A stretch of DNA of 64,000 nucleotides, taken from Haliotis rufescens. Its lineage: Eukaryota. The position numbers and the translations under genes are program-made. Shown here piece after piece: positions 37,312 to 61,200 of this stretch. The number at the start of each line of letters is the position of its first letter. Within the stretch, counting starts at the first letter, position 1. The notes under the pieces were generated by a model, which was not told the origin of the DNA, did not search any database, and saw nothing but the letters and a program-made list of their open reading frames with translations. The stretch is from the NCBI RefSeq assembly GCF_023055435.1, contig NW_025964112.1:20026001-20090000 (forward strand). Reading direction: 5' to 3'.

Positions 37312-37317
37312 AATAAA
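37312..37317 (+). promoter_or_regulatory. Probable polyadenylation signal of the unc-89-like gene (~2.3 kb 3'UTR)
   Basis: First AATAAA seen after the stop codon, followed by GT/T-rich sequence (ttgtatgttgtt). Confidence 0.5.
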
Positions 37318-38149: not shown

Positions 38150-38249
38150 GGAGTAAGTGAATGAGTGATGTTTTATTATCAGCTAGGGATAGTCCAGCCA
38201 TACCATGACAGCCCCTTATAGTGAGTGAGTGTTAAAACACAATTCAAAC

Positions 38250-38990
38250 TTGATCAAAGACGAGATTCAGGAAGCGTAGTACGGGAGGAGATAAACAGAA
38301 ATGTGTTTGTTCAAATAACACCGTCATCTTGCTTCCTTGTAAACCTTTTATCTGCAGAAACTCCTTGCTTTCCTAATTCTGCTACAATTTCTTGCTCTGA
38401 CACATCAGACAGACAGTCGGGCACAATGCCGCGACAAGAGTTAAGTGGACTGTGCACAGCCACAGCAATGTCCTTATTTGCAAACAATTAGACAGATAGT
38501 AGATTGGGAAATTGCTGTCTCTTTGTGAATTCAACCAGAAGGACCTTGACAGGTCTTTACCTTTACCTCTCCACAAGTTTCAGAAATACTTTTGATATAA
38601 CAAACGGATTGAGATTGATTGTCTGCTTGCCAAGGATCTCTATTATAATCAATCACGCACAGGAATCAATATGTTGAGATACATCATCAGTTTCAATTTC
38701 AAATTATAAATGTCTTCTTTTTGGACGATTGGAACCCAACAATTGTTTGGACATGGTGAAGCCCACCCTCCATCGTGTCTGAACATGGAATTTTATTGCA
38801 TCGGATCTCCAGCATGCAAATACCAGGGATACAGGGGTGTTGTACTCGAAATATGACATGATTAGCTTTATTTGTTAAAAACCTTCATTGCCGGGCTAGT
38901 TCGGCCCATAGCAATACAGTATTCAGCCGTCTACATTACCAGATCGGCCCATGAGCCACCGCCTTCTGGCATAGGACTCCAGACGATTTA
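38250..38990 (-). mobile_element. Degenerate 5' fragment of an I/Nimb-clade LINE (ORF1 remnant)
   Basis: Minus-strand translation with stops: LNPFVISK...LLVEF...AVHSPLNSCRGIV...SEQEIVAELGKQGV...TNTFLF...TLPE, resembling I-group ORF1. Confidence 0.65.
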
Positions 38991-39059
38991 TTACATCAAT
39001 AATTAGTGTATTCTGCGACCAAAGACCAAACAATACATTTGTCAAAAATAAAATACATG

Positions 39060-41024
39060 TATGTGCAAAAACATCCTATGCACAGGGCTTGGAATGACCA
39101 GCCGATTGACCTTCTAGCACCTGTTCGGGTAAAGTCAGGGTCAAAGTTGTGTGTTGGGCAGGGGAAACCTGTTCCTGGCACAAGATCCCCAATCTACCAG
39201 ACTCCCCATTCTCCACCGGCATAGAGACGCAACCCACGGCAAACGGGTTGCTCAATTTAGTCACCTTTTAGGACAAGCAATGGGGTGCTGGGGTCATATT
39301 CTGATACGATGTCGGCGTCGTCTACCGGACATAGAAAAAGTAGAGAGCGCTCTCGACCCACAGCAGACGATCGACATCAAGATACAGATCGACATTCTAA
39401 GGATCGACCCCTAGAGTCACATCCTAAGGCTCGACATTCACAGGATCGAGCCTCAAAGGGACCCAAAGGAAAGCTCTTCTTCAGGTCGTCGGTCGCGGGG
39501 TCGATCTTCTAAGAGTCGTCAGTCTAAGGATCGATACTCCCAAGGGTCGACATTCGGATCGTTCTCGTCAACATTGATCATCACGGGAGTGGACTTCTAC
39601 ATCGAGGCATTCCTCCAAGCAGAGGGAGATCGTCATTATGAGACCAATTCTGAATCTTCGGACCGTCATCACTCCATGGATTGATCTTATAATTATGACC
39701 ATGGCCGCTCCCGTTCGATCGCGTTCTTTGGACTCTTGGCTCTCAACACCATCCCTATCGAAACTCATCACGAAATTATGGATACGACAAGCCCCTCGGC
39801 TAGGATTGATATCCATCTCCATCCCATCGATACCAGCCTATGCGATACTATCTTTTTCCCACACCTGATTGATATGGGGATAATCGATATCGGCCCTACT
39901 CTAAATACCCTTCAATGCCTGATTACTATCGCTATGCTTCTCCTACACATCGACATCGAGATTGACATTGACATGAGGATCGACAGGAAATCGACATCGA
40001 CCTTCCTCTCATTCACGTTCCGCGTCCCCTACTGATACCGATCCAGATCAGTGATCACCCGACATGTCGCACTCCCTGGTCGTAACGCCGCCCTCTCAAC
40101 TTCCTGTGACAGACCCTTCCACTAGTACGGTTCCTCCAGCGACTAATCCCTTACCAACTTCATGGGGTCATAGAGATCAGACCGTGTTCTCGGCATCACA
40201 GATGGGATCGCTTTTACAGTCCTTGTCGGCAGCCTTACAGCAACGCACCGAACAGTCGGGGGTATCACCTACCGATGCTAAACCACAATTGCATTACAGA
40301 CGACTCCAGGTACTGCGGTTAGAGACAGGCTCGATAACAGGCCTATTCCTCCGGATGCTATCCCTGACAGCCAGGCTTCACCTCCATCAGCTACGCCCTG
40401 GGGATCCTACTCTGATTCTTCCTTGGATCGCGTACACACTCAACTTTCCTCGTAGTACAACCGAGGATGATCTCCTTTTGGGGTTTGCGATGTCCACTAA
40501 CGCGGCTTCTCCAATCACGTTGCCTCCCGCGGCGATCATGGCGGACTTCCCAAAGAACCTGGATTTGGCCTTTGCCGCCTTCCGTCGTCAGAAGGACAAA
40601 CTATCTATGCCCCGGTTCAACATCGCTGGGGACACATGGGATGTCAACCATTGTCTCTTCTCAGAGGTTGGACAGTAACATTGCGACCCTCTCCCCGAAG
40701 CTTTCCTCCACTACATCTGTTATTGATGATCGGGAACTAGTTCATCTGAATGTCACCATCAGACGGACCCTGTCCTTATTGTCCACCATACTGTCGGCGA
40801 CAGACGCAGTAGCTATGTCCGTGTCCCATGCTAAGACGTCAGAGGAATCATACATCAAAGGGACCCTAAATTTAATCAATAGAAATTCCAGGACGTCATG
40901 GACCTTATCACACATCAGTTGGTATCACTTACTGCTCAACTGCGAAGAGGCCTACTCACCAGGTCCTACTGTCCTCCTTAAATACATCATGTTTAGAACA
41001 ACAATCTGCGACTATTTCAGTTAA
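39060..41024 (+). mobile_element. Decayed retrotransposon gag-like region, probably DIRS-type
   Basis: CpG-rich, frameshifted ORFs; long R/S/H/D-rich low-complexity region followed by a helical segment (…ITLPP…DRELVHL…TAQLRRGLL); no RT seen. Confidence 0.45.
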
Positions 41025-41602
41025 GTGTTTTAGAACTAGGAAGACAAGAGCTCTCATTTAGCTGCATGTATTGGTCCAATTGGCTTGTACTGGGAGGTTT
41101 TATAATACTTGCGTTTCAGGTCTTCCCAGTGAAGCATCTCCTTTGTGATAAAGGCATTGATTTAAATGTTGCATTTGTATAGATATATAGATTTCTGATA
41201 AAAAAATATTGCTGTCTGCTGTATGATGGCATTATTCCAGTAATCCATCAATGTGTTTTTAAGAACCTTCTCATAACGCTTAAGACTTTAATTATTAAAC
41301 TGACAATGAACATCCCCCTGGTGATATTCATTTGTGATACCTGAATAAACTCTGGAGCGCTCTCAGAAAACCCCCAATCTACTTTGATGATGAGGACCAG
41401 TATGTTATAATAGGGAGTTACTATACTAACTATACATCCTTCTCATGATTCAGTAAACCTGCTACGGTTCTTAAGTTAATTGATTACTGATTCTGTAGGG
41501 ATCTGTACAGATGGTTTAAAACGTTTGCCACTCACTGTATGTCGGATACAGTGTATGCTTGCCCAACAGCACAGGCAACAATTTGAAACAACCCCGTATA
41601 GA

Positions 41603-41929
41603 ATGGGTTCCTTCTACGTTATAAGCATTGCGGTCATTTGTATGAATTGTGTTTCTCCGGTATCCGTGAGGAAAATGTGTTCAAAGGTAGACGATCTGTC
41701 ACAACTGCGGCAAAACCAGCGACTTCCTGGAAAAGAATTATTTTCAACCATGACAGATGGAGTCATGTTATGTGCACGCTTATGCCTTGGTGTTACGCTG
41801 TGTGGTTCTTTCAACTTCAACACCAGAACTGGTGCTTGTGAACTCAATGACGTCACTCTTGGGACAGAAGGAACCGAAGTAGTCCATGCACCCAATTACG
41901 TTTTCTCCGAAGTCAACTTTTGGCCAAAG
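41603..41929 (+). CDS. PAN-GON exon 1: signal peptide + PAN/Apple domain
   Basis: MGSFYVISIAVICM...; CARLC...CGSFNF...CELN; AAG|gtaatc. Confidence 0.85.
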
Positions 41930-44900
41930 GTAATCTTCAAAACCCATGTCTTTCATTAGTTTCCCCGTGTAGTTCTTGGGGCGAAACATGTCCCTGGTAC
42001 CCATGCTTGTCGATACAGGCCGCAGAGATATAGGTGAAATGTTGTGGGATGTTGTAGAATGTTGCGGACTCGCGCGATACAGGCTGCAGAGATATTGGTG
42101 TAATGTTGTAGAATGTTGCGGACAACCACGATACGGGCCGTAAAGATATAGGTGGAATGTAGTGGGATGTTGTGGAATGTTGCGGCCTGGCGCGATACGG
42201 GCCGCAGAAATAATGGTGTAATGTTGTGGGATGTTGTAGAATGTTGCAGACTGGCACAATACAGGCTGCAGAGATATTGCTGTAATGTTGTGGAATGTTG
42301 TAGAATGTTGAAGAATGTTGCGGACAACCGCGATACGGGCCGCAGAAATATAGGTGGAATATTGTGGGATGTTGTAGAATGTTACGGGTTGGTGCGATGC
42401 AGGCTGCACACATATTGGTGAAATGTTGTAGAATGTTGCGGAAAACCGCAATACAGGCCGTAGAGATATAGCTGGAATGTTGTGGGATGTTGTAGAATGT
42501 TGCGGACAACCGCGATACAGGCTGCAGAGATATTGCTGTAAGGTTGTGGAATGTTGCGGCCTGGCACGATACGAGCCGCAGAAATATAGGTGGAATGTTC
42601 TGGGATGTTGTAGAATGTTGCGAACTGGCGCGATACAGGCTGCAGAGATATAGGTGGAATGTTGTGGAATGTTGCAGATTGGTGCGATACAGGCTGTAAA
42701 GATATGGTTGGAATGTTGTGGGATGTTGTAGAATGTTGCGTACTGGCGCGATACAGGCTGCAGAGATATTGGTGTAATGTTGTGGAATGTTGCGGACAAC
42801 CGCGATACGGGCCGTAGAGATATGGTTGGAATGTTGTGGGATGTTGTAGAATGTTGCGAACTGGCGCGATACAGGCTGCAGAGATATAGGTGGAATGTTG
42901 TGGAATGCTGCAGATTGGTGTGATACAGGCTGTAGAGATATGGTTGGAATGTTGTTGAATGTTGTAGAATGTTGCGTACTGGCGCGATACAGGCTGCAGA
43001 GATATTGGTGTAATGTTGTGGAATGTTGCGGACAACCGCGATACAGGCTGCAGAGATATTGGTGTAATGTTGTAGAGTGTTGCGGACAACCGTGATACAG
43101 GCTGCAGAGATATTGGTGTAATGTTGTAGAGTGTTGCGGACAACCGTGATACAGGCTGCAGAGATATTGGTGTAACGTTGTAGAGTGTTGCGGACAACCG
43201 CGATACAGGCTGCAGATATATTGGTGTAATGTTGTAGAGTGTTGCGGACAACCGTGATACAGGCTGCAGAGATATTGGTGTAATGTTGTGGAATGTTGCG
43301 GACAACCGCGATACAGGCTGCAGAGATATTGATGTAATGTTGTAGAGTGTTGCGGACAACCGCGATACAGGCTGCAGAGATATTGGTGTAATGTTATAGA
43401 ATGTTGCGGACAACCGCGATACAGGCTGCAGAGATATTGGTGTAATGTTGTAGAATGTTGCGGACAACCGCGATACGGGCCGTAGAGATATGGTTGGAAT
43501 GTTGTGGAATGTTGTAGAATGTTGCGTACAGAGATATTGGTGTAATGCTGTGGAATGTTGCGGACAACCGCGATACAGGCTGCAGAGATGTTGGTGTAAT
43601 GTTGTAGAATGTTGCGGACAACCGCGATACGGACCGTAGAGATATGGTTGGAATGTTGTGGGATGTTGCGTACAGAGATATTGGTGTAATGCTGTGGAAT
43701 GTTGCGGACAACCGCGATACAGGCTGCAGAGATGTTGGTGTAATGTTGTAGAATGTTGCGGACAACCGCGATACGGACCGTAGAGATATGGTTGGAATGT
43801 TGTGGGATGTTGCGTACAGAGATATTGGTGTAATGCTGTGGAATGTTGCGGACAACCGCGATACAGGCTGCAGAGATGTTGGTGTAATGTTGTAGAATGT
43901 TGCGGACAACCGCGATACGGGCCGTAGAGATATGGTTGGAATGTTGTGGGATGTTGTAGAATGTTGCGGACTGGCGCGATACAGGCTGCAGAGATATAGG
44001 CGGAATATTGAGGACTGGCGCAATACAGTCCGCAGAGATATAGGTTGAATGTTGTTGAATATTGAGGCCTGGCGCAATATTGGCCGCAGAGATATAGGTG
44101 TAATGTTGTGTCATGTTGTGTAATGTTGTGTAATGTTGTGGACAAAGCGATACAGGCCGTAGGGATATAGTTGGAATGTTGCGTATTGCCGCAGAGATAC
44201 AGGTGGAATGTTGTTGAATGTTGTTGAATGTTGCGGACTGGCGCGATGCAGACCTCGGGAATGTAGTTTGAATGTTGAGGACAGCTGTGATCTTCCCGAG
44301 GCAAGAGTGTCCACATGCCTATATCAAAGCCTACTTTCCACCCTTGCCATTTCAAACCTACTTTTCTGATCTAAAATATGAAAGGACTATCGCACATATC
44401 GACAGCCCCATCAGAGAACGTTCTCCAAAATCAACATCTGGGTTCCGAAAACGTGGTCGTTGCCATCGCCTGTCGAATTGTTCCAAAAACTAAGTGAAGT
44501 CAAATATTTCGGAGTGGTTCAAAGTTTTTAATCAACCCGCCAAAGTACTATCTATACATATATAGTTCATTGTTGTTTTTTTTTTATCTCGAACGACTGA
44601 ACGCTTATAGCGGTGAGGTGAGGTGAGGTGAGGTGAGGTGAGGTGAGGTGAGGTGAGGTGAGGTGAGGTGAGGTGTTTAACGTCGCGTTCAAGATTATTA
44701 TACAGGGACGTGCATGTGTGGGGCTGCTTGTACTTGTCCGGACAAATGCTAGCCCACTGAGATATCATGCCGCACTCAGACACAGCATCCAAGCCGACCG
44801 GTCCTTGTTTTAGCCCGATAATGCCGACCACCAGGCAGGTTAACAACAAGTTTTTAACGTTTCGTTGTATGTCGCAACCTCCCGCTCTCCGGGAAGACGA

Positions 44901-47900
44901 TCTACCACTTGTCCACGGAGGCAGTCTTATGGCAGTGACTGAGATGAAGTGTTATTTCCAGACGACCCCTGCGGAGTGTTTCACGTTACTGCGATGTTCA
45001 GTGTTACTTTGTCCTGCCTAGTCTGTATGAATATATTAGTGTAAGATGAGGCAGTAATAAGAATCCTAACTGTGTTGGGTGAAATGGTTTACCGTGGCGT
45101 CTTTGCCGTGGTTATTTTGTGTCTGTCAGGGGTGAAATCTCGAATCTTTTTGTAATCTGATGGACCAGTTAGCCATCTTTGTGAAGCCATTCGAAATAAG
45201 AACATCGATCTTGTTGGATATCGCCTTTTCATCAAAGGGAAACAACTCGTGTTCCACACAGGGTAGCGCCACGATCGCTGTAATACACGGGTGGAAACAA
45301 GGCTTTTGACATAGGCAATTATTTTATGAAAACATGGGGTTTTAAGTTTGTTTGTTTGATTTGTACTTTTTCAATGGATTATTGATGTTGGAAGAATTAT
45401 TATTATATACTCATATGACCATGCATGTGTTGCCTGCCAGAGACTTGCCGGAGTGTGCATGAACCACACGTGCCTCGAGTCCCAGTACTGTCAACCAAAG
45501 AACGACACTGACTACTCCTGCAAGCCTTGGGGTGAGTATAAAGGACGACAGTCATTCCAGTATTATTCATAAATTTTAATATTCAATTATTATACCATAT
45601 TTAAGTTATTTTCCTTCTCCTGGCACTTTTAAAAAGACTAAATTCTTTAAGTTCCCCTGTGTCGCTAAATAGTGTAGAAAAAAAATCAGAAATCTGGGAA
45701 ATACAATCTTTCTAAATTAATTCAAAGTGTGTTTTTATTTGTGTGTGTTTTATTTGAAATGTGTTGTGCACATATAAACTATTTATGAAATGTGAAAAAT
45801 ATCAAGTATTTGTCATATACTCAACAACAAAAGTTCCTGTGACACCAATATTTTAGTGTATTTTCAAACAAGTAAAGTTTGGTTTTCAATATTGTAGTAC
45901 ATGTATGGAATCAAGTCACAAAAACGCAACTGCTACAGAAAAGCATGCATTCCATGCAAAAGGTGACTTTTATGCAAGCCCCATGAATTTCACTACTCAA
46001 AGAATGGGTATAAAAACATGTGCGTTAACGGGATTCCATATGCATTGTTTAGCATCGTGCTGACAAAAACCACTCAGAAAAACATCAAAATTACGCAATT
46101 ATTCAACATTACGAAATGCCACGCCTGTCCGAAAATGAGCGTTTGCGAGCCATTGGTATGCTTGAAGCAGGATCGTAACCAATAATCGACAAGACAACTG
46201 GATTCGAACAACACACCTACGAAATCGATTCCAGCTTGCAACAGTGACTGCAAGAAGCATCCCTGGCCTTCAACGAATATCTTCACAAACCGTACGTCGT
46301 CGCCTCAGATGTGCAGGGATTGTCGCCAGAAGACCCGTCAGACGTCCCATGGACGGCCATGCAGTGGAGACAAGTTCTATTCACTGACGAGTCTCGTTTT
46401 CACCTCAGCCACAGCGATGGGCGGATTCGAGTGTACCGACTTCGAGGTGAGCGTTATGTCAATCATTATGTCATTGAAGAAGATCGGTTCTGGGGAGGCA
46501 GCGTAATGGCATGGGGTGGGATTACAGCAAGACAGAGGACCCGTTTGATAGTGGTAGAGGGAAATCTCAATGGACAGCGCTACCGCGACGAGATCATCGG
46601 CCCTGTTGTTCTACCGTTTTTTGCGTCGTCATGGCCCAGGCATTACCTTTCAACATGACAACGCCCGGCCTTATATTGCTCGACTTGTTCAGGATTCCCT
46701 TCAACAAAACAACGTGAATGTCATCCCCTGGCCGGCTCGCTCCCCTTATCTCTCACCAATCGAGCACATGTGGGATGAGATGGATCGGCGCCTTCGACGT
46801 CAACCACGTGTTCCACAGACACTCCAGGAACTTCGGAACATGCTCCAGCAGATATGGACAGTTATCCCACAGGACTTTGTGCGACGCCTGGTCCATTCCA
46901 TGAGACGAAGATGTGTTGCTTGCATCGCAACCAAAGGTGGATACACACGCTATTGATTTGTAAATTGACATTTTGGCATGTTCATGTTTTTGTTTATGAA
47001 ACCACGCATTTTCTGAAGTAAGTATGGCAAATTAAACCATTTGAACACTTACAGGAGTCTTTTATCTGTTGCAAACCGGAATTGTTTCAGATTTGGTTAA
47101 AAACAAAACTTTGCATTTAATCTTATTCAATGTCACAGGAACTTTTGTTGTTCTGTATATATATAAATATATGCATGATACTTTCCATATTTCATAAAAA
47201 GATTCTTTGTACGTAGGTAAGCTCGCATGCACGCACGCACGCACACACGGACATAGACATACATTATATATACGGTATGTTTTACGGTAGGCCTAGACAT
47301 TACCTATAACAGTGGGTATATTCAATGATGATGTTTATCGCTAAGAAAATGGACATTTCTTGGAAAGCGCACTTTGCAATTTTTTTGCATAACTGTAGGT
47401 AATAATCCTTATCGGCTGAATGGTTTCACTTTATAAGCATTAATTTAGCATACATGCGTTAATCATCGCGATGTTTCGCTATTCTATTTCAAGTGGCGAG
47501 GACTATAGCAACACATACCAAATTTCAGTACATGTTGTCGTAACTGCGTTTTGGGTTTAAGGCCAGGTTCACACAGTGCCGATTATGGCTCCCGTTTGAG
47601 ATCAGAAAGAGCGACGACACGTAAAGTGAAAAAGTCGGATAACTATCCTTAATGATCTGGAATGTCCTATCATTGTCTGAACGCAGTCGTATACTTTCGT
47701 AACAGAGTCCTACGGATCAGGAAAGGTCCAGAGAGGTCGGCCAAGCACTTCCGACAGTATGGTGCGTCCCGTAACATTCGGGAAACCTTTTTTTCGGGAA
47801 AACTCCGATTTTGTCTCGTCGGATTACAATCGTCACTATGTCTTGACAGATTCTGCTGTATCGGATCAAAATCGTAACAATTTCCCGTGTTGTCTGGGCG

Positions 47901-50900
47901 GTGTCCTGTGGATCGGGCATAAATTGTTCATTGCCCTTTTTTTGTCGACTGAGTCCAGATTGCGTCCAGATCTTGCCGAATGCGAACCGTCTTTGTCGGT
48001 GCACTGTCCGGTCAGTGTCTGATCTGTGTCGGATTGCATTCGGGAGAATCGGGACGCTGTCGGAGCAGATTAGGTCGTTTTTCACCATGCGGAAGATACT
48101 GATCAGATCAGATTCAGATTGAGAACGGGAGAATCGGGACGAATTCGGCTGGAAACGGCTGAATCGGGACGCTTCCTGAACAAAATCTGATTGTCAATTT
48201 CCCGCCACGAATCACAGGATCCTTGATCAGACTTTTGACACATTTTAATTGGGAATGGTCCTATCAAGGACGGCTGTAAAACTCCTGAATGTGTGACTGA
48301 GACCTAACTGAACCCTTCTACAGTTACCTATTTTATTGTCGTTCCGTGTCGTTATACGAACATACGTTTTAATCGCTCCAGTCCATCAAAGACAAATTCT
48401 ACACAAGCGGCTCGTAAGTTTCGGTATTTTTCCGAGTACGACACACATGAGTTCATGGTCAGATCAGACTGTTAAAGAATCAAAATGAGGCATTGTTACA
48501 TGTGACATGTGACAAATACGGAACACTAAAAAGAGATGTTCAGTACTTACTTTGGCAGCGACTGAAGCCAATCGACGCCATTTTTCAGTCTGTGACGAGG
48601 CTGGCCTGTCTTGTGTATAAGTTGTCTTTGATGGACTGGAGCGTATGTGAGTATAACCTATGAGTTGTATTTATTCCTGGAGATTCGCTGTGCAGAGTGG
48701 CGTCCCTTGGGCACGCCAGAAACCTATGAGTGTGGGTTCGAATCCCGATTACGTTTCTAGGTTTGTCAGCACCATATCCGTGCTCGTGGCTTTCACCGAA
48801 GTGGTAAACGTTTGAGACCTGCATCACTTCGGGCGTTCCTCCCACATTAAGCTGACACGCCGCGATACAACTGGAATATTGTTAAAAGCGGCGTTAAACC
48901 CAACTCACTCACTCACTCGCTATTCCTGGAGAGAGAGGCATAACGTAAGTTCCGAATTGATGCCCTTTGTTATGTAGTAGTTCAAGTGAGGGTAGAGTTG
49001 AACTCATAAGCTGTTCATCATTCATTATAAAATCGCTGAAATCAGACATGTGCTGAACTGGCGCCCTATTCTGTTCTGAAGTGTCCGGTTAAAAGGTAGG
49101 TAGGTTTAGTTTCTGGAGAAAACTTATAAACTGTTAAATATTGTTAATTTTACTTTGTATATAGAATACGCAACAACTGAACTGGTGGCTTTTGCGATTC
49201 GGGAACTTATAATTTGCAGTTTTTTGCTGTCGCTTCAATGACAGATAATTTAATTTAGTGTAGGATTTGATACCAGTGTCAAACTATCACGTTTCATTTA
49301 CTGGACTCCTTCAAAGATTTCATCACAATCCCAGGGGGAGATGGTTGTTTGAAATTGTTGGAAAGCGTGAAGGTGTAAAAATCATTAATTACTTCAACTG
49401 ACCTCGACTCGTTTTTTAACCCGTTCACCTTGCGATACATGTTTATAAGCAGGAAACCTTTCGTTCGTAACCTGAATAATAAGTGTTATCCACTAATCAA
49501 CCCTTCACAGTATATGTTCCCTATTAAAGAACGACAACAATTCCTCCAGGCGTTCTCTCACTACTTTAATCGGTACAAAACTCACTCGTATCACTTATAA
49601 TTAAAGATGCACTTTGCTGAATATGTGTATATTTGGGTGAGGGTTTACCGCCGCTCAGGACAATAGTTTAGTTTTATCACAGCGTGTAATGTACGAGAAA
49701 AGTCCGAAATCACACAGGTCGAGGGCGTCTACAGCCTTCATGAAGCCCATGATCGCGATAACGTTGCACACAAACCAGGGCGAACCGCGGTTCGAACCTA
49801 CAATCGTAGTTTCAGGAAGTTCAAAGAGACGCAACTCTCAACGGCAAATTGCGAACTAGTAGGCTTTCTCATTATTTTTTCAACAGTGGCTATGTCGTGC
49901 TCTGATGTGCAGCAGTGTCAACCAAACAGCCCAAATGGGGAGTACTGGCTCCATCTTGGGAGCCATCCGTTCAACAAAACCCGGATATACTGCCACGACA
50001 TGAGTACAGAAAATCCTCAGGAATATGTTACGCTTCTCCACGAAAACGATGGCTTCTACCCTGCCAAACAATCACTTGGGTGTACGAACGAATACACATG
50101 GCCAAACAAAGGTGGATCTGTGTGGTTCCAAAAGATTAGATTAGATGTCAAGGTGAGTAACATAAGACGGGTGCAATTAGGGTTTATACAGTTAGAGGTA
50201 TTTAAATAACAGTGAGTTAGTATTGAACCGCACTTAAACAGCATTTCAGTCATATCACGGGGTGTCAGCTTGGTGTAAAGGTCGCCCCAAGAGATACGAG
50301 GGGCGATTGATAAGTTCTAAGCCTAACAAAGAAAACAAAGTCAGTTTGATACCAAAGCTTTTTATTTTTCGACATAGTCCCCTTTAAGGTCAACACACTT
50401 CTGCCAGCGATGTTGCAATGCCATTATGCCACTTTGGTAGAAGTCAACTTCTTGGTCTCTCAAAAAGTTGTTGACCACTGTAATGACGTCATCATCTGAC
50501 TGGAAATGAGTTCCAGCTAAATGCCTTTTCGACTGTGGGAACAGATGATAGTCCGACGGAGCCAAAACAGGTGAATAAGGTTGATGTTGGAGAAGTTCAA
50601 AGCCACACTCATGGATTTTGGCCATTGCTATCAGTGATGTGTGTGCTGGAGCATTGTCGTGATGATATAGCACATCTTTCGTCAACTTTCCACGTCGCGT
50701 AACTTTGATTTTCTCTCTTAACTGTCTCAGAAGTTCCACATAGTAAGCCCCTGTAACAATACGGCCTTTAGGAAGCCAGTCCACCATGATCACACCTTCA
50801 GAATCCCAAAACAGGGATGCCATGACTTTCCCAGCTGAAGGCACAGACTTTGCTTTCTTTGGAGTAGGAGATGTGACATGTTTCCAGTGTTTAGACTGTT

Positions 50901-53900
50901 GGTTTTGATTGAGGCTCAAAGTGGTGGACCCATGTTTCGTCCATTGTAACAAATCGTTTGAGAAAGTTATCTGGATCACCCTCAAAAACCTTGAGGTTCT
51001 CCCTTGAGTGATTCTCTCTTTGACGTTTCTGATCAGCTGTCAACAGTTTGGGGACCCATCGAGCAGAAACCTTGTGCATTCCTAGAATATCTGTCAGAAT
51101 GAAATGCACTCGCTCCTGAGAGATGTCCACTAAGTTGGCTATCTGTCGCTGTGTCACTCGTCGGTCGTCCATGACTATGTCCAGGATTCGCTGTACCATT
51201 TCAGGTGTTGAAGACACAACAGGTGGACCAGGATGGGGTTCATCATCAGTGCTCGATCGCCCGTGTTTAAACTCTGCCACCCATCTTTTCACTGTTGCAT
51301 ATGACGGGGCATCTTCCCCAAGTGTGGATAACATATCCTCATATATGGCATTGGGTGTTAAGCCTTTCATGTAAAGGTATTTGATAACAGCTCGCTTTTC
51401 CTGTTTCTCCATTTTAAGTCATCTCATTGCAGTCAATAGCTTATACTGAACTAAATAATGTGTCCAATACAACAATCCTCCTGGGTATGTCAATGTACTT
51501 GATCAGTCTATCACCACCACAAAGGAATTCAGCCGTACCACACTCCTTCAGAGGTAGGCTCACAACTTAACAATCGCCCCTCGTATTTTCCGCTTCGAGC
51601 CCCACGGGCAAGAGTAAAGTGTTGACAAACCTGGAAATGTTAGCAGGACGATTCTAGGATTCGAACCCACGATCATGGGTTTCTAATTTACCTAAAGGAC
51701 GAAGCTATGCTCAGGGAATTACTGTGCATTAGACGACTGTCCGTCCGTGCCCAATAAACTGACAACATGTCAAAGCTAGTTAGATATTTAAGGTATCTAA
51801 CATCTATTTTATTATATAAAAGGCCTTATTTTTATGCCTGTAAATATATGGTGATAAACGTAATAATTACTAGGAAATGGGAAGATGGTCGGGGGATCGA
51901 GGAACGGACTTAATCTTTCCGACCGTCCGTCCGATTCTCAATGGGGACAAATGTTCTCAAAAACTATGCAAGTTAGAGAAATGGATTTTTACACACTGAT
52001 CTTACTGGTCATCATCTTAAACGAGTTAAAAAATTGGTGCCGTTAACTATTCCTTTACACAGTTCTAGCCCTTGCTCCCCGCTTTTCAACTCAGTGCCTA
52101 CTGCGTGATATTCAGATATGTTTTCTCAAAAACACCATAAGTTTCATGAATGAAAGTGTGTGTGCTTATCTTGTTAAAACTGAGTTCGAAAATTGGTGAC
52201 GTAAAATATATTTTTCCAGAGTTACATCGCTTGCTACTTGTTTTTATGTTTGTGCATACACAGGTAGGCCCTTGATCCATGTATTTTTCTATGTAGTGCA
52301 TAACGTGTGCCATCAGATTTTCTCATGACATAAGGCCACCCCAGTGCCTAGCTCTGGTTTATAGTTAACATTAACTTCCATGTTATTCACTACTATTCGA
52401 TTAAACAAAAATTCTAATGTGCCGCATGGCTAGGGATAGTGATAAGGCTGTTTTCTTGTTTAAGCAGGAATTCAACTTGGTGCTGCTAGTGTCTCCACGC
52501 TAATGATCCTTGGTTCACGGGTCCCATTCATTCAAGTCAAAACTGCTATGATCTTCATTGTATTAAACTATAACGCACTAGAGACCTTGTTTATAAAATA
52601 CTTAATATAACTTTGACACAGGAAGTCCAATTGGTAAATCTACAAAACACCGAGGGACCTCAACCTTGACCAAATTTAGGTGATGTTATATATGTAAAAT
52701 CTCTATTCAATGCTAACATTAACTTCCTGAATGTAACTAGAGGCAAGAATTTCGTAAATGACTGACTTTCAAGCAACCTTGGCATGTGACACAACCATAT
52801 GTATTGATTTAATTATTAGGTCTTCTTAAATGATTTGAACATACAGATGTTTGACGAATTATTCCAAAACATACAGATGTCCGAAGAATTATTCCAAAAC
52901 ATACGGATGTTTGACGAATTATTACAAAATATTTTGCCATATTTTATAGTTTGACCTTGACATTGGCCATATTTGGAGGTTACCCAAAACATGATGCGTT
53001 TGAGAGCCTGCCTTAGAGATAATGTATAGTGCGTTTTGTCAAATGATCAATACTCAAGTGATCTTGTACACAAGCATTTCTAACGCCTATCTCACACTGA
53101 GTGACCTTGACCTTCAATCGCATGCGAGAACAATAGTTGTTGCAAACTTAGGTGGGGGGACAAATATGAAGACATTGCCAATACTTTCTGAATGAAACCA
53201 TTTTCAAGCCATTTCAAAAGCCTTTAAAGCAACCCTAACATTTGACGCAGCCATGAGGTATTGTCCTAATCATAGGAAGACTGGATAACGCGTCGTTTTT
53301 TTAGAAATTAATCCGAAATTCGGGAAATTTTAATCATGTTTCATAATTCGACCTTTAGTAACCTTGGCCTAAATACGAAGTTCACACAGTTGATGCGAAT
53401 GAGACCCCACCCTAGAGATCATATTTACTTTTACTTAGGTTACATCAAGTTACATTCATAAACACCCAAGCTAGTCAATATTCGTGTACACACGTTTCTT
53501 AAGCCTATTTCACACGGAGTGACCTTGACCCTCAATGTTATTCCCTTATAGGGGGTATATCATGTATGACGTCTGACATTTGCCATGAGCACGTGGCTAA
53601 GAAAGCCAATGCAGTGGCAGGATACAAAACCAAGCAAACACATTAACCAGGCCCCATCCTAGAGGGGGCTGCCTAATAAGACCAAATAGCCAGCCAAATA
53701 ACAATACAAAATTTAATGTCGGGATGACAAAACTGTGGAACATTTCTCTTATACTGTAATGAGTACGCCTGGAATACATGAAGGAAGCAATAATATAATT
53801 TATGACAATTATCAAATTCATGGCCTATTTTCCATTCATCCAAAGAACATGGCTGTTGTGCGGAAGGACTACACATTCGCCAATTGGACTAATGCGGCAA

Positions 53901-54432
53901 TGCAATATGGCAGAGCTGCTGACTGCTATACCACTCACGCGAACGGTCTTGCTAGGTGTGGAACTAAAGGAAGATTTACAGTTGACTTGAGGGGAACTGG
54001 ATTGGCTGTCGTGCCAGAGGTAAGCATGTGATATTATGTAAATAAAAGCGACCAAACCCTTTCCATATTCATATTAAATCCCTGCTACAAGCAGAGTCGA
54101 TTTACGACATCGACTATATCATGAGCATGTGTTTATGAATCACTTTCAAATAGTGATGATACCTGGGGTTCGTGAAAAAAATTGCATCATTTTGTCTCTG
54201 ACGCGTCAAATGTGGAAATGTCCTCCACATGTCTATCATAAAACGTTTTAAAAGCTTTATACAGGCCTTGAATGTTGTAACGTTGATCAAAAAGATTCTG
54301 ACCAAGAATGGTACGGCGCTCGTTGAGAGGTAGAATTGGTAGAAAGAGCATGCTCGATTGTACCTCAAATGTTGTGAAATGTGGACACCAAAGGCTGGAG
54401 CTGCAGGAATGTTTAAAGGGAAAGTGCTTGTA

Positions 54433-54463
<31 letters not shown>

Positions 54464-56828
54464 TTGTACTAGTCCGGACTAATGCCGAGTTCATAGTGCT
54501 AGCCCACAGACATAACATGCCGCAGGTTAACTGAACCGACCAGGCCTTGTTTTAGCCCCATAGTGCCGACCGCTAGGCAGGTAAGCACCATCGTTTAACG
54601 TCTTTGGTATGATGCTGTCGGGGTTCGAACCCACGACTTCCGCTCTCCGGGCAGACGCTGTATCCACTAGACCACGGAGGCGGTCCATTGACCTGATGTT
54701 TCTGAGCGTCCGAGGTATCACCGATACCCGCTGCAGAATTGTTACAAGAACTGTATGTTTCACCAGATGGTCGCAAGTATTGAGTCCTATCATCATGCAG
54801 TGAGGCAGAGGAAGCACCAGAAAGGGTAGTCAAGTAACTTTAAAACAGTGCCAAAATACACACACTACTTCGGTTAAGTATTATAATATGAGTATGTCTG
54901 GAATTTGAGAAAATATGATTTATTTAGTATTTTAATTGGGTGAATGTGTGTGTTCGTATGTTCGTGTATTCTTGGAAATGTGTCTCGGCTGCTACTACAG
55001 AAGGGGTCTCCCACATATAGCCAACCTTAACATCTCCACTGATTTTTATATGCAAGTTAATATGAATGGTTGTGATTTCAAAACAACCAAAATATGCATA
55101 TCACATTTCGGAACAGCCATGTTTGAATAAAACGTTTTTAACAACGAAACACTATAATCAAATAAAGCCAACTCCATTTGCAATTTCAATGGGTCGTTTA
55201 CGATTTTGTGTCGGTATATTTCAAAATTAGTAGGAATAGGTTGTCTTAAAGTTCTGATAATAAATCAACCATATCAGAGACTTGTGTTATGACTGAGAGT
55301 ACTCAATACATCTCTTCGTTATCTGTATTGATGTATTTAGAAGAGAAAAAACCGTTTAATAAGTCTTTAAAAGCATCCCAAGTTCGTTTGTTTTACAAAC
55401 GTTGATCACTGCCGTTAAAGACAAATTTGTTTGAAGATAATCGGCACATAGATAAAAACATGTTCAAAGAAGTGAAGGAACATATATCAAGTACGATAGT
55501 TAGGGACCGACCTTTTGTGGTTATCAAACAAAATCATTATGCTTCAGGCTTTTCAGACAAAAATAAACTGCCTGCGACAAAAAATGCAAATTACTTTGTT
55601 TGAATTCTTTGTATCTCATGGCATTCTCATCAAATTTTAATAGTGCTGATCTTGACCATTGTAGTACATTCTAAACATTCAGTACACTGCTAAGAACACA
55701 TAAACCCCACATGGCACACCTACCTTTCTTTACTAATACTCTGTAGAACGCTGCAAAACACACGTATATCCATGCAGCTTTAACAATGTGGCAACGAATC
55801 AACAAACATCTATGGGGATCTTCTTCCGTATAAACTCTACACAATAGCAGGATTATAGAGGTCGGCGTCGTGGGAATGAACCTATATATGTGTAGAGGCT
55901 GATGAAGTCATCGAGTTGTTGTTTTAACCCTTGTGTTTGTATCACATTCAACGAATGCTCCCATCCAAGGTTCATGCTTGAAGTCATAACATAGCATAAT
56001 CAGCACACATGAACCAACCTTGTTTGTCACCTCAGTGGATCAGCTTATTTATAAATATTAGTTAAACATATTCTGGATATTTGGCTAAGCTTACAACTTG
56101 TTTATCTCAAAGGGTGATGTAACAAGGATGAAAATCCATGGGTGCCACATAGCATTGAGGTGAATGGAAAATATCCGAACGTATTCAAGTAAAGTATCGA
56201 TTATACATATTCAGGTATATATAGGATATTATCACTAAATGCATAATAATACTCATACCATATGGTGGTAAAGATACTGGATTTATCTATTAAAGGGGGA
56301 TACAGGTTAGGGCCTTTTAGTTATTCATGTAGGATTCATCCATACCCCAGATTCACTTTGTGGGGCGGTCGTTAAAGCGTTGGCTCGTCACGCCGAAGAC
56401 CCGGGTTCGAATCCCGACATGGGTACAATGTGTGAAGCCCATTTCTGGTGTCCCCCGCCGTGATATTGCTGGAATATTGCTAAAAGCGGCGTAAAACCAA
56501 ACTCACTCACTCACTCACCAGATTCACTTTGTCTTCCAAGACTGTTGGCAAATTGTGATGTAGTCATCGTTATGAGCGAATGATTTAGTTCGGTTAGTCA
56601 GCTGAACCACGTGACACACGACATCTGCTTGCTGCTTCCTTTTTTCAGCAAACTTGGAGGAAATACGGTTATAAGTCTATAATCCAGTCCATTACTCGCA
56701 ACCAAGAAGGAACCGTCATCGAGTTGAAATGTGGCGGGTACTGTGGACATTGTGATCCAGCAGGGCCTCTGACGTTGCAAGTAAATTCAGCTGAGAGTGA
56801 GTGTTCTTCGCAACTGATAATAAATTGA
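41603..56828 (+). CDS. Secreted PAN/Apple + GON-domain protein (5 exons, 345 aa)
   Basis: Exons 41603-41929, 45441-45531, 49887-50152, 53846-54019 and 56649-56828 join in frame (phases 0,1,0,0; 1038 nt including TGA). Hydrophobic N-terminus, PAN cysteine pattern and full GON motif set. Confidence 0.85.
42010..44285. repeat. Compound intronic satellite: 54-bp core with variable GAATGTTGTR decamers and a 144-bp higher-order repeat
   Basis: gatacaggctgcagagatattggtgtaatgttgtagagtgttgcggacaaccgc; gcgtacagagatattgg recurs at 43524, 43668 and 43812. Confidence 0.95.
44613..44926 (-). mobile_element. tRNA-derived SINE (family C, MetaSINE-like), (CTCAC)n tail
   Basis: Homologous to 54425-54686; (GTGAG)n at 44613-44674. 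Confidence 0.7.
45441..45531 (+). CDS. PAN-GON exon 2: 4-Cys EGF-like linker (RLAGVCMNHTCLESQYCQPKNDTDYSCKPW)
   Basis: ctgccag|...TGGG|gtgagt, phase 0-1, which bridges exons 1 and 3. Confidence 0.8.
45820..47155 (+). mobile_element. Tc1-like (DD34E) transposon with defective transposase
   Basis: 25-bp TIRs ctcaacaacaaaagttcctgtgaca / tgtcacaggaacttttgttgttctg, TA flanks. Confidence 0.92.
46116..46956 (+). pseudogene. Tc1 transposase pseudogene
   Basis: MPRLSENERLRAIGMLEAG...VLFTDESRF...FQHDNARP...SPYLSPIEHMW; internal deletion and frameshifts. Confidence 0.9.
47561..48304. mobile_element. Non-autonomous PIF/Harbinger-like element
   Basis: TAA on both sides; imperfect TIRs GGCCAGGTTCACACA / TGTGTGACTGAGACC (10/15 match); CpG-rich body. 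Confidence 0.55.
48684..48920 (+). mobile_element. SINE family B, 5'-truncated
   Basis: B-box GGTTCGAATCCC, (CACT)n tail, 12-bp TSD tattcctggaga. Confidence 0.88.
49887..50152 (+). CDS. PAN-GON exon 3: GON N-part
   Basis: SCSDV...NGEYWL...IYCHDMSTENPQEYVTL...FQKIRLD; phase 1-0. Confidence 0.9.
50297..51583 (-). mobile_element. Full-length mariner (DD34D) transposon, 1287 bp
   Basis: 29-bp TIRs CGAGGGGCGATTGATAAGTTCTAAGCCTA (3 mismatches), TA duplication at 50295-50296 / 51584-51585. Confidence 0.95.
50362..51412 (-). pseudogene. Mariner transposase with a single +1 frameshift (~50901)
   Basis: WVPKLL, VTMDETW, SAGKVMASLFWD, HHDNAPAH, YSPVLAPSD; motifs resemble Himar1/irritans-type transposases. 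Confidence 0.92.
51828..52360 (+). mobile_element. Probable second HINE-like element
   Basis: T-run start, (CGTC) microsatellite, 3' hairpin ccagtgcctagctctgg followed by TTT. Confidence 0.4.
52838..52929. repeat. 3 x ~30-bp tandem repeat
   Basis: aacatacagatgtttgacgaattattccaa. Confidence 0.8.
53846..54019 (+). CDS. PAN-GON exon 4: GON middle
   Basis: DYTFA...YGRAADCY...GRFTVDLRGTG; GAG|gtaagc; phase 0-0 (AAG acceptor). Confidence 0.88.
54150..54424 (-). mobile_element. Penelope-like retroelement fragment
   Basis: NIPAAPAFGVHISQHLRYNRACS resembles the PLE post-RT motif (PAYGVYISQLIRY.RACS). Confidence 0.6.
54425..54686 (-). mobile_element. tRNA-derived SINE (family C, MetaSINE-like), (GCAC)n tail
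   Basis: A-box TGGTCTAGTGG, B-box GGTTCGAACCC, followed by accaaagac...ggcact...aggcctggtcgg core. Confidence 0.8.
56362..56517 (+). mobile_element. tRNA-derived SINE (family A)
   Basis: B-box GGTTCGAATCCC, (CACT)n tail, 15-bp TSD ccagattcactttgt. Confidence 0.92.
56649..56828 (+). CDS. PAN-GON exon 5: GON C-part and stop
   Basis: ttttcag|QTWRKYG...TRNQEGTVIELKCGGYCGHCDP...TGA; not in the ORF track. Confidence 0.88.
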   Translation, partial: QTWRKYGYKSIIQSITRNQEGTVIELKCGGYCGHCDPAGPLTLQVNSAESECSSQLIIN

Positions 56829-56831
56829 TAT

Positions 56832-58229
56832 TGTTACGTGTCGATGCACAAATTGAAACTATATGTTAACCCAAGAATCTGTACGTAAAAGAATTTGGTA
56901 TGAAACTCTCTCTTCTTTTTATTTCTCTTTTTCTGCTTCCATTCCTCTAAGCCGAATTTCTTTTTCCATAGCCACTTTTTCTCTTCCAAATTCTAACCTC
57001 TTAAATAACATCAGTTTTTTTCAATCAAGGCCAGAACATCATCATAAAAAAATCATTCCAAACAGGTGTGTTATAACATTTTCCTTGACATTAGCCTTAA
57101 GCATACCCGATTTGATATCAAGTTTGTAATGTTTGGCCAATTCGACCAGTTCTGACTTTTTGAGTGCAGATAATTGTTCCGTAGAAGTTTGGCTAACAAA
57201 CTCATCTACACTAAACACCATAGGGATTGTTGGCTTCACACAATTTTAGACAATGAAATGTTTATATAATAATTTGACAAATAATTTGTGATATATATTC
57301 AATTCGATCCCGGACGAGCCCCCAATTTCTGTTATGTGTCGATTCTCAAATTGAAACAATATATTACCCAATAAATCTGTATGTTAAAGAATTTAGTGTG
57401 AAATCAACAAATGGCATCAACAATTGTATTACACAAAAATCTAGGTTTACAAATAATCAACACAAATTACTACACAGCAATTGAATTGGCAGTACACATT
57501 AGAGTGGTCGTACAATATTCAATGGCAGTATAAAATGTGAAAGCTGTGGAAATAACACCGACAAGAATAATAATCACCTCGCCGCAACAGTGGTTAAGCT
57601 TCCGAGATAGGTCTAGGCTAGGAATCCAGGGTGAAAGCTGGTCTTGATGTAATGTCAGACGAAATGTGAGATGACAGACGTAATAAGTGGAGCGGACGCG
57701 TGCCTAAATATCTTCCAGACATTTCACACAAGGCTTGGCCAATCCAACACAGAGTATTCCACGTTTCTATAACACATGACATCCATCCATGCTATTCCGG
57801 AAGTTTACAGATTTTTCGAGCATCTAAATAGTATAACTTCCTCACCACTGCTTACATGAAATATTACTACATTCCTGACAACTAATCATTGTCCAAATAC
57901 AATGTAATGAACTGCTACTGAATCTCAACAAAAACAATGCAATACAGTTACAATCATTGTTTAACAATACATTACACTGCCATATATAATACTAAGTTAT
58001 TTAGGAGATAAACATACTGTTTTCAATGAAGAGCTAGATTATCAATCGGTTTAACCTCGCTGAAGAGAATTTGGAACCGAAAGCTCATTGTGAGTTTCAA
58101 AAGTAATATTAAGCGGATTAGAAACTTGATCGACCAAGAGGAAAAGAGAATTTTCGAACTACTTGAAAGTTCGCTTTTAACTATTCTTTGAAAAGTATAT
58201 TAGTTTAATTATCTCAGCTCGTCATAACA
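56832..58229 (-). mobile_element. Internally deleted Gypsy LTR retrotransposon (5' LTR 57330-58229, tRNA-Pro PBS, gag start, stub of second LTR)
   Basis: LTR ends TGTTATG...CATAACA. PBS TGGGGGCTCGTCCGGGAT at 57307-57324 is complementary to the tRNA-Pro 3' end. Gag-like FSVDEFV...LKKSELVELAKHY. 56832-56875 repeats the LTR end. Confidence 0.8.
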
Positions 58230-61200
58230 CAATCTCTACCCGGACTAGTTATAAGCAAAATCAGTAAGTATTCGAATAAATTTATTTGGACCGCCGAGTT
58301 CTCGACCAACATGCTTCAAGCAATGGTAGGGCTACGACAATCGTACGACCAAGATGTTTCTAGCAAAAGAGCTTCTGTCAATACAAAGTGTTATGCATTT
58401 GATTACATAGTAAAATTCAACTTGTGTGGCGTAATAACGAAACATTTTTGTTTTCAATGACGATCCCCGTAATAAAGGTTGGAGGGATCCTGAGCACGGG
58501 ACAGCAAACTTTAGATAAGACGGTTATGGTTATAATTTCCTTGCTTGATGTCACCTAAGACATTTAGCTTTCTTTGTAAAGCCGGCACAAATCAACTCTA
58601 AGTTCGCAAGGTTATCGGGGACAGCTTACCGATAATCTACAAATGGAAAAAAAATAAACAACTTAGTTTCTGCCATGTAAAAGCATACATCAGTATTTGT
58701 AAAATATAAAATAAAATACAGAATCTAAACACGAGGGCGAGAGTCTACTTGTCATGGACAATCATGGTTCCAACTTTTTCAGTCTGTAAACATTAATAAC
58801 CAGTGTCTTGAGTGTGAAACGTACAGCTAACCAGCCAAAGTGGCTTATAGATTAGTCATGACATTGTCTCCTGGGAGATATCGCTTGATCTATCCCAACC
58901 GATATCATCTGTGGATAATAAATATGTGTTCGTAATACTGAACAGAAAAGGTTAGGGATGTGGAATATTTTTACGAAATTGATTGGTTGGTTTCCATTAC
59001 ACAAAATAGCCCCCGAAATAGTCATGACACCCAACTCTTTTTGTTCAGAATAGAAAACCGTATGTGGTACACGTATGCCGTATGTTGTCATTCCAAGTTA
59101 GTTCACGATTCCACGTCTCCGAGACTGGCAATTTACCGCTTTGTGTTTGTATTGTAGGCCAGTTTGCGGTTGTTTGGTCTTGTCATTTGATACTTTTGCA
59201 TGCTTATATCGGCGAATATGTTAACAAGTTTACCACTTTCTTTCAGACATACCGTCGACTTCTACCACAGAGGTAACGTGTGGTTAGAACTCCCTACCCA
59301 TGTTGTATGCCTGTAGAGAGAGAGAGCGCCTACACGGCAGTCAAATGTCTGTCCAACTACACCCTGAGCCCCCGAGTCACTGAATTTTGTTTCAAAGCCG
59401 CCTTGGGCAGTACTTCATTTAAATTGCGGTCTGTGGGCTAAATGTAAGACGGAAGTCCAATTTTATGCAAATCTTAGCCGCTTACAACTTTGATGAGACC
59501 ATGAGCACGGGTATTGTGCTCGCAAACTATACATCATAAACAGGGCAACTCTGGGATCCGAAACCACAATAACCGGTTTCTTGCACACCAAAAGGATACA
59601 ACGTCATGACACTACCGTTATTCGACCAACGCTCATCCTCGATTATCCAGTCTTTGATATAACCATTCCATTATGATTAAAACCCTTGGCACATTCATTT
59701 ATATAACTACATGACGTCACCACCTCCACTGCCCCTATATCATCTTATAATTGATATTGTATAGCTCGTTAATTTAATTTGACTGGACGGTTATTTTTAG
59801 CACTGTGCTGTTCGAATGGGTCCAGGGTTTTTTTTGCAACTGAGATATAATACACAGGTTATCGAGGATGACTAACGCTCAGCGTTGTAGGAAACAACAT
59901 GGAAACCTTAAATATTTTGTCGATTTCGCTCACAAATAAAAATACTTCGTGCGAGTCGCGAATGAAATATTGATGACGTCTACTTCAGTAGAGGTACGAT
60001 AGATTTAAAAAAAGATAGGGTAAAAAGGATTTGGCTGACTCACTGTCAACCATATGCTCCTTGCTTAAAGGTTATACCCCACAGTTAAAAATAATACCTT
60101 TTTAATAATGCGCATTATGCATATATACTTTTCTCCCGGAAATAAAATATCCGGTTAATGCTTGTATTTAGGACTCCAAAACTGACAATTAAGTACTTGT
60201 TGGTTACACTTTGTGACCTGGATGCACTGGATCGTTCCTCATATCAAACACTGGATTGTCTGGTCCAGACTCGGATATTACTCACCGCCGCCATACAACT
60301 AGAATATTTCAGAGTGCGGCTTTAAAAAACAAATACAACTGAACAATGAATGCATGATTTGAAGAGTAGTTTGCTGGAGGTGACTTCTGTCACCGGGTGA
60401 TAGGGAGGTCAGACTCGCTGACTTGGTTGATGCATGTCATCGTATCCCAATTGCGTGGATCGATGCTCAGGATGTCAATCACTGGATTGTCTGGTTATTA
60501 ATTTTATTTCACCATTATTGTCAATTACCGCTTTTCCTGGTGCCGTATTATACTTTGAAATAAATGCTTGAATCCTGTGATAAGGGTGTTCAACACGAAC
60601 CCCCGATCACTACATCATTTGGTCTCTTGTATATCCTGAAACTTGCTCATCTTCAACTTGTCGACACTTCTCTGGATTCTCAATATATGTTGAACTCTGA
60701 AAGCTGAAAGATAAATAGTTACTTCCTTTCATGCAATGTGTAATAATTGTCACCATAAATATTGTTCCTAAAAAAAAATGTGCAGTGAAGGTATCCTTGC
60801 AGAGATATATTCAAGTAAAGTCTTTGGTACATGGGTGTTCTATTTAACCGCAAGAGTGTTTACATAATAACAACATTAATACAACGACGTTTGGAATAGT
60901 GTAGTATACAAATGTTTTCAAAATAAAATGTGTTAATAATGAATATTTGAGAAGAAAGGAATATGTATTTAACATTGTATTAACAATGTGACTTATGACA
61001 TAAAGAACCAAAAAAGATGTGTAAGTGGTACTTGTTCTATTTGTAGGAACTATGTGTTCACAGCATACAGTTAACTAGTCTGTTAATCCACGCCTGGACA
61101 TTTAGAGGGACTAGTTGTTTCCTCCACAATTGCAGTATGTTACACAACCTACTAGTCTGAAAATACCTACGGACTAGTTCCATATCACAAATAGTGTCTA

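Follow-up and report, generated by a model that had tools for sequence, protein, structure and literature searches.

Outside ADAMTS9/20, a protease family associated with human disease in which it forms the tail, the GON domain is hardly known. The gene described here lies in a 64,000-nucleotide stretch of the Haliotis rufescens genome (RefSeq assembly GCF_023055435.1, contig NW_025964112.1, positions 20,026,001 to 20,090,000 of the forward strand; this whole stretch is called the window). Like ADAMTS9/20 and GON-1, it codes for a C-terminal GON domain with a phase-1 intron before it, but its product has no prodomain, zinc protease or thrombospondin type 1 (TSP1) repeats and falls in a separate clade. 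At its other end there is a PAN/Apple domain behind a signal-like N-terminus. From sequence comparison, we consider it an even bet that this protein, a member of an old mollusc PAN-(Sushi)n-GON family with dozens of copies in abalone, is a diversified secreted protein of extracellular recognition.

GON proteins without a protease have been noticed before. According to Yoshina 2012 (PMC3338439), Pfam GON proteins range from 219 to 2,289 aa, and protease or thrombospondin domains are not obligatory in them. In molluscs, the protease-free proteins follow a common plan, which is also that of the window protein (signal peptide, optional PAN or Sushi domains, and C-terminal GON). One named example is GON-Sep-2 of the cuttlefish Sepia (UniRef R4FJA6), which reportedly comes from the coleoid posterior-gland transcriptomes of Ruder 2013. 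It has a signal peptide, no protease, and a C-terminal GON domain with the same tail cysteine (36% identity over 190 aa), but it carries Sushi and no PAN and sits on a separate tree branch.

Orthologs and paralogs of the window protein with Pfam GON and PAN_1 are present in databases for Haliotis (P0011, P0015, P0016, and P0004-P0006) and other molluscs as "ADAMTS9-like" or "ADAMTS20-like" proteins. These are automatic names, and the precomputed Pfam list gives no protease or thrombospondin domain for them. An earlier interpretation of the locus (the sequence-only reading) had anticipated such a misannotation, and the database name is indeed "ADAMTS9/20-like." It had also called the protein functionally unstudied. 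We found no paper on these Haliotis proteins and no description of a PAN-GON family in the literature searched (Ruder 2013 or Supplemental Table S1 of Yoshina 2012 may list PAN-GON architectures), but protease-free GON proteins are already in print (Yoshina 2012, PMC3338439) and GON-Sep-2 has been named, which the sequence-only reading had missed. The family is misannotated and apparently undescribed, a variant among protease-free GON proteins.

Gene structure and transcript

The gene is real and spliced. It has six exons, with a coding sequence that runs from 41603 to 59287 and a product of 348 aa (NIPSTSTTEVTCG), as follows (window coordinates; X2 is a public sequencing run).

41596..41602, + strand: transcribed 5' leader; the contig of run X2 starts at 41596, with no loose end before it
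41603..41929, + strand: coding exon 1, predicted signal peptide (aa 1-~22) and PAN/Apple domain (aa 24-109); Pfam PAN_1 E 2.4e-7; on contig X2
45441..45531, + strand: exon 2, four-cysteine linker with a phase 1 end; its first 30 bases are the loose end of contig X2
49887..50152, + strand: exon 3, N-terminal part of GON, with the fibrinogen/COLFI-like subdomain and variable loop A (aa ~197-219); Pfam GON E 1e-12; on contig X2
53846..54019, + strand: exon 4, middle part of GON; Pfam GON E 4.4e-8; on contig X2
56649..56796, + strand: exon 5, C-terminal part of GON with the motif CGGYCGHC, and a GT donor in phase 1; Pfam GON E 4.3e-7; the contig X2 match stops at 56796
56797..56828, + strand: intron read-through, earlier taken as the C-terminus; begins with GTGAGT, not on contig X2, absent from orthologs
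59247..59287, + strand: coding part of exon 6, tail with the conserved last cysteine (C347), then TAG; the joined translation corresponds to P0011 up to the last residue

GT-AG sites join the five exons first read into a 345-aa frame. Pieces of these exons were found in one of six public runs (X2) among the matches listed; its RNA nature is probable, a guess given that none of the six is recorded as RNA. Blanks in other runs (X1, X6, and X13 for exon 1; X1, X8, and X11 for exon pieces among the matches listed) are not evidence against the transcript. Its contig (2,042 nt, depth 10.9) contains exon 1 at letters 1709-2042 with 0 differences and runs on into exon 2, while exons 3, 4, and 5 are adjacent at letters 1355-1618, 1180-1354, and 1030-1179. 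Between exons 1 and 3, the contig has room that matches the 91-nt exon 2; hence, PAN and GON are on one spliced molecule, as the sequence-only reading had supposed. Its five-exon model of 345 aa was right for exons 1 to 5, which are spliced with the frame intact, but it missed the sixth exon, and its last ten residues (SECSSQLIIN) are intronic.

The contig departs from the genome after 56796, at the GTGAGT donor, and continues for 1,029 further letters; if these are colinear with the genome, the 3' untranslated region would end at ~60275. Exon 6, with its acceptor (CTTTCAG) at 59247, is supported by orthologs, by paralogs and by the departure point of the contig, and the joint between exons 5 and 6, off the mapped contig, is predicted from them. 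The annotated protein of Haliotis cracherodii, the black abalone (P0011), is 96% identical over 348 aa and has an identical end, the orthologs of H. rubra and H. asinina are likewise 348 aa long, and the paralogs in tandem next to the gene share the short last exon. An in-frame ATG upstream at 41555, used in the annotation of P0011, has a weaker context than the one at 41603.

Domain content and absence of a protease

Exon 1 scores above the curated Pfam cut-off for PAN_1, and exons 3, 4, and 5 each do so for GON. In the ortholog P0011, GON covers residues 158-347 (E 7e-39), and the only other domain is PAN_1, with no TSP1 repeats there or in the region. The product has a hydrophobic N-terminus, four N-glycosylation sequons and no later membrane-spanning stretch, and neither a membrane anchor, a KDEL or other retention signal, nor a protease was found in the 348-aa sequence. 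These features, which agree with the stand-alone, protease-free PAN-GON protein proposed earlier, predict secretion.

A metalloprotease encoded further upstream would have changed this picture. However, the + frames from 35000 to 41602, that is, the preceding 6.6 kb, contain no HExxH motif, and long ADAMTS queries matched the GON exons only, with no prodomain, protease or TSP1 exons in the window plus 150 kb. The X2 contig starts 7 nt before the ATG, and the true transcription start may precede 41596. None of these lines of evidence points to upstream protease exons, in agreement with the sequence-only reading. A genome-wide Reprolysin search gave 5 matches on other contigs and none on the contig of the true ADAMTS9 gene (C146), and so is a weak negative.

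The cysteines outline the remainder of the molecule. Those assigned to the two core PAN disulfides (Cys57/61/67/79) are kept in 53-57 of 59 aligned relatives. The linker contains four cysteines, which by eye form the pattern of the first half of an EGF module; all four are found in 42-44 of the 59 relatives, and the linker gave nothing significant in Pfam or PDB. When the 19 mature cysteines are paired by pattern, Cys26 is left over, and it is conserved in 46 of the 59. Finally, C347 in the exon 6 tail co-occurs with C150, six residues after the first GON cysteine: of 99 scorable sequences, 55 have both, 37 neither, and 7 are discordant (kinship not corrected). This co-occurrence suggests a family-specific C150-C347 disulfide, for which exon 6 would be needed.

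Relation to ADAMTS9 and GON-1

The true ADAMTS9/GON-1 of this genome, with TSP1, spacer and GON exons, is located at G000:C146:3157000-3215000 (-). A phase-1 intron just before GON occurs in both genes at nearly the same position. The GON part of the ADAMTS9 gene has five internal introns, none common to the window gene, and ends where exon 5 ends. In a maximum-likelihood tree of 57 rows, hand-picked from 203 domains plus the ADAMTS9 of the genome, the 12 ADAMTS rows formed a clade (100/99) with all the protease-free mollusc proteins outside, and a FastTree of 203 rows gave the same clade and the same placement. A constraint that united the window subfamily with four ADAMTS rows, one of them from this genome, was rejected by the approximately unbiased (AU) test (p-AU 0.002), the group having been named after the tree was seen. 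On this tree the 29 protease-free GON rows need 2 changes, with a long root on the bacterial rows, and its deep forks favor neither a single origin of the mollusc family nor a direction of recruitment.

Mollusc ADAMTS9/GON-1 was therefore rejected as the donor of this GON domain, given the AU result and the lack of any shared internal GON intron, and the exon shuffling put forward by the sequence-only reading was not borne out in the form of an origin from that gene. Without descent from ADAMTS9, there is also little reason to assume the competitor role toward ADAMTS9/20 that it had suggested.

The same data bear on the idea that the protein works inside the endoplasmic reticulum (ER), either in lumenal trafficking or by competing dominantly with ADAMTS9/GON-1. 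According to PMC3338439, GON with just a signal peptide was able to restore ER export in Caenorhabditis elegans, and a free GON C-terminus is important. The window family has instead an extra C-terminal tail with a cysteine pair, characteristic of mollusc protease-free GON proteins and present in 0 of 18 scorable ADAMTS sequences. Its GON domains lie outside the ADAMTS clade and were rejected as sister to mollusc ADAMTS9, it lacks a retention signal, and a housekeeping task is hard to reconcile with dozens of divergent copies, so that we hold an ER function to be very unlikely.

An expanded family in abalone and other molluscs

A GON profile search of the genome (150 of 182 candidates scored) yielded 110 matches, 65 of which start at profile positions 1-5 by hand count. 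A tandem cluster of ~120 kb begins at the window gene and contains seven copies of GON exon 3 and five complete PAN exons, with a shared exon plan where the copies are complete. Out of 30 GON loci fetched, 16 are single open frames with the order signal-PAN-linker-Sushi(n)-GON; such intronless copies are likely retrocopies and duplicates of these. The partial copies near 20121-20139 kb and 20163.7 kb (G000:C334) look broken. Large clusters of other PAN exons, ~40% like the PAN of the window, are found on G000:C157, C90, and C223, with no GON match nearby in the genome GON search.

Outside this genome, a profile search of 1.84 billion representatives recovered 1,390 proteins at E<=0.001. PAN_1 was detected at E<=1e-4 in 19 of 77 GON proteins scanned, a subset of the 146 new proteins among the matches listed, chosen among those up to 600 aa, and a PAN profile of the family labels 71 of 203 GON sequences, those of the window genome included. 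Named relatives belong to Haliotis, Patella, Lottia, Gigantopelta, Ruditapes, Saccostrea, Argopecten, Mya, and Sepia. The paralog expansion across molluscs that the earlier interpretation suggested looking for is thus present, with dozens of copies in the abalone genome and relatives in limpets, bivalves and cuttlefish.

The Sushi-less architecture of the window protein also occurs in the bivalve Ruditapes (P0099/P0179, genus assigned through the neighboring accession P0130) and must therefore be old. Close paralogs carry a Sushi cassette at the same phase-1 junction, so the Sushi-less form may have arisen by loss. The intronless copies nearest to the six-exon cluster genes (L001-L005, G000:C523 and C609) have one Sushi domain, which the cluster genes lack, indicating that they derive from a transcript with a Sushi exon at the phase-1 junction. 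As for a hidden Sushi exon in intron 2 of the window gene, tblastn with Sushi-bearing paralogs found none, and the X2 contig has room for exon 2 only.

A cephalopod relative raises another possibility, namely, a secretion of salivary or digestive glands, comparable to the coleoid "GON-domain" gland proteins, with food, prey or gut microbes as its target. GON-Sep-2 (signal-Sushi-GON, protease-free) appeared in the same search set and, through the cluster representative P0056, groups (100/100) with a PAN-Sushi-GON protein of Sepia. The window gene, however, does not group with this cephalopod pair, and, to our knowledge, abalone are grazers without such a venom gland. Besides, a gland protein with a microbial target would overlap with the recognition role. 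We find this explanation quite unlikely.

GON is found well beyond these proteins. In Actinomadura and in metagenome sources that look bacterial (P0019, P0021, P0022, P0026, P0029, and P0030), it follows signal-like N-termini, often in tandem, in predicted secreted or lipoprotein-like proteins that form one branch. In amphioxus (Branchiostoma P0096, P0114, and P0119), where GON is joined to C-type lectin, Link and VWA domains, and in P0100, P0113, and P0101, GON is fused to C-type lectin, Link, VWA, trypsin, Fn2 or Kazal domains and is often N-terminal. These non-ADAMTS fusions of GON are a second shuffling burst.

Predicted structure

The AlphaFold2 model of P0011 has a mean pLDDT of 78.9 (83.5 for a paralog GON alone). 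Its PAN domain resembles the apple domains of Sarcocystis SML-2 (Z 10.7, root mean square deviation [rmsd] 1.9, 72 aligned residues), Toxoplasma MIC4 (Z 10.2), and kallikrein (Z 9.8). The fold is that of the apple lectins and adhesins and of the kallikrein/factor XI apples in general (Z 9.6-10.7), but with ~15-27% identity and no GON in those proteins. The top match is a galactose-binding lectin, with the kallikrein apples tied within 1 Z, and a likeness of fold does not show the ligand.

The GON domain can be split into two parts. The first 45-80 residues align with the procollagen C-propeptide (hidden Markov model E 4e-5; Z 4.2, rmsd 4.4, 71 aligned) and with fibrinogen (Z 3.4, rmsd 2.1, 41 aligned); language-model neighbors of this subdomain are COLFI and Fibrinogen_C clusters, Foldseek rows for GON include tenascin, intelectin and angiopoietin at E 0.14-0.66, and Pfam COLFI matches exon 3 with an E of 0.0034, below cut-off. 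No match to Fibrinogen_C was found on P0011 at E<=0.01 (Pfam). The remaining ~150 residues are predicted to be a beta-rich domain without a clear solved match. In fold searches with GON alone, none of 48,161 chains reached Z>=5 and no Foldseek row reached E<=0.001, which is no proof of a new fold, and our searches found neither a solved structure covering GON nor a GON ligand. A homodimer prediction for residues 39-364 of P0011, made with no alignment, scored 0.00 and gave no verdict.

Two low-confidence loops of the GON model (paralog residues 61-71 and 126-131) coincide with variable regions. Among 11 relatives without Cys318, 10 have an extra cysteine in loop A, the variable loop encoded by exon 3, which suggests that this loop packs against the CGGYCGHC hairpin.

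FREPs, ficolins and intelectins are fibrinogen-related recognition proteins. They resemble the window protein only in the way they might work, being secreted, multicopy and diversified proteins with an N-terminal module and a C-terminal head that starts with a fibrinogen-type A subdomain. Their complete Fibrinogen_C domain is not in the window protein, where the alignment is limited to the N-terminal 41-71 residues (Z 3.4-4.2).

The collagen-like subdomain also agrees with a structural or adhesive role in mucus, extracellular matrix or shell matrix, in which the two heads would cross-link polymers and the copy number would reflect tissue-specific matrices. Two relatives (P0080 and P0032) have long Sushi or EGF arrays, and PMC4224354 lists GON among extracellular-matrix domains. 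On the other hand, the main text of a 2026 comparative shell-proteome paper contains 0 occurrences of GON, and the distribution of changes along the protein, described next, has to be accommodated.

A variable loop on a conserved body

Six young paralog pairs, pooled, gave ratios of nonsynonymous to synonymous change (dN/dS) of 0.31 for PAN, 0.54 for linker plus Sushi, and 0.88 for GON. The PAN value differs from neutrality (p=0.009; five of the pairs include PAN), and nonsynonymous differences per site (pN) are higher in GON than in PAN (p=0.0014). In two further pairs from the tandem cluster, 8 of 11 amino acid changes in exon 3 fell within the 22-aa loop A (p=0.0009). With the 8 pairs pooled, the loop A pN of 0.072 exceeded the gene-wide synonymous value (pS) of 0.036 (p=0.004). 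Compared with orthologs from other Haliotis species, 8-9 of the 23 loop A residues are retained, against 66-73 of 86 in PAN. These data give moderate and partly post hoc support to a putative variable binding tip on a conserved body.

An inverted pair of paralogs (G000:C334:20139970-20143505 [-] and 20165756-20170495 [+]) has a pS of ~0.07 in PAN and exon 3 and ~0.27 in exons 4-5, a mosaic divergence that points to recombination or conversion between the copies.

A plain scaffold would not be expected to combine a conserved PAN with change focused on a single GON loop. For this reason we regard the matrix explanation as unlikely, although it is the rival that we take most seriously. Fast-evolving gamete proteins are well known in abalone, and a loop A that differs strongly between Haliotis species on an otherwise conserved protein would also suit a gamete- or larval-surface protein whose divergence reflects reproductive recognition. 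Yet loop A is identical to that of H. cracherodii at 20 of 23 positions, and the family is large and mollusc-wide, which makes this role highly improbable.

For the recognition role, we picture a two-headed secreted molecule, with the modeled apple domain at one end and the disulfide-clamped GON head at the other, in which paralogs would vary the spacer by extra Sushi units. The conserved PAN end would bind a constant partner (a host glycan, mucin or receptor), and the GON head, with loop A as its fastest-changing part, would bind variable ligands, for example glycans or proteins on the surface of microbes or food. The conserved and apparently unpaired Cys26 could, speculatively, join chains into multivalent oligomers or attach them to a matrix. 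Tandem duplication, intronless copying and exon-level mosaicism would add to the repertoire, as in FREPs, ficolins and intelectins. A small recognition or matrix protein was what the sequence-only reading had imagined; the contrast between a conserved PAN and a changing loop A adds some support to the first of these roles, which we still infer, and the second persists as its rival.

Several points weigh against recognition, a role predicted from sequence data. The excess in loop A is not significant against its own local pS (0.072 versus 0.050, p=0.67; ratio 1.46), loop B shows no excess (0.67), and the value for GON as a whole (0.88) does not demonstrate positive selection. Since the GON scaffold itself has a ratio of ~0.83, part of the signal is accounted for by a relaxation of constraint in young duplicates. 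The loop bounds were fixed from the structure model after the loops had been noticed in ortholog alignments, so the test is partly post hoc. At 96% identity to H. cracherodii, the window gene is more conserved than a fast-moving immune gene would suggest, and the count of GON matches in the genome may include pseudogenes, haplotype duplicates or hits to the N-subdomain alone. The fibrinogen likeness, with weak Z-scores, is confined to the first 45-80 residues and does not extend to the part with which ficolins and intelectins bind their ligands. Proteins are as frequent as glycans among the ligands of PAN domains, and the sole published GON function (Yoshina 2012, PMC3338439) lies inside the ER.

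A broader version of the recognition role would make PAN-(Sushi)n-GON a mollusc-wide, diversified pattern-recognition family, the vetigastropod counterpart of the snail FREPs, and GON an ancient ligand-binding domain (a fibrinogen-type base with a beta head) shared with bacteria and later recruited to ADAMTS9/20. This is possible, but we consider it doubtful.

Small secreted PAN-GON proteins are natural and easily expressed versions of GON with a mapped variable loop, in which the question of the GON ligand is directly testable. Dozens of genes labeled "ADAMTS9/20/gon-1 protease" in transcriptome and genome-wide association study (GWAS) tables of farmed molluscs may be non-proteolytic binding proteins; if so, relabeling would change how such hits are read and make them candidates for host-microbe recognition. 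A clam GWAS (PMC12123719) refers to a "gon-1" gene as a protease.

Other sequences in the window

Intron 1 contains a 2.2-kb minisatellite (42011-44250, unit ~54 bp), the opposite strand of which gives spurious long frames (662 and 793 aa). A Tc1-like (DDE_3) remnant is found in intron 2 (46000-47100, +) and a mariner-like (Transposase_1) remnant in intron 3 (50300-51600, -), both covered by many contigs. Open frames at 39000-40740 and 62700-64000 look retroelement-like by eye, with no Pfam match at E<=0.01 in three pieces. Upstream, positions 300-35016 (+) are occupied by the 3' part of a giant muscle-type gene, presumably obscurin/UNC-89-like, which comprises two kinase domains and numerous Fn3 and Ig exons (Pfam fn3, I-set, and Pkinase); it ends with a frame that stops at ~35017, leaving 6.6 kb to the PAN-GON gene.

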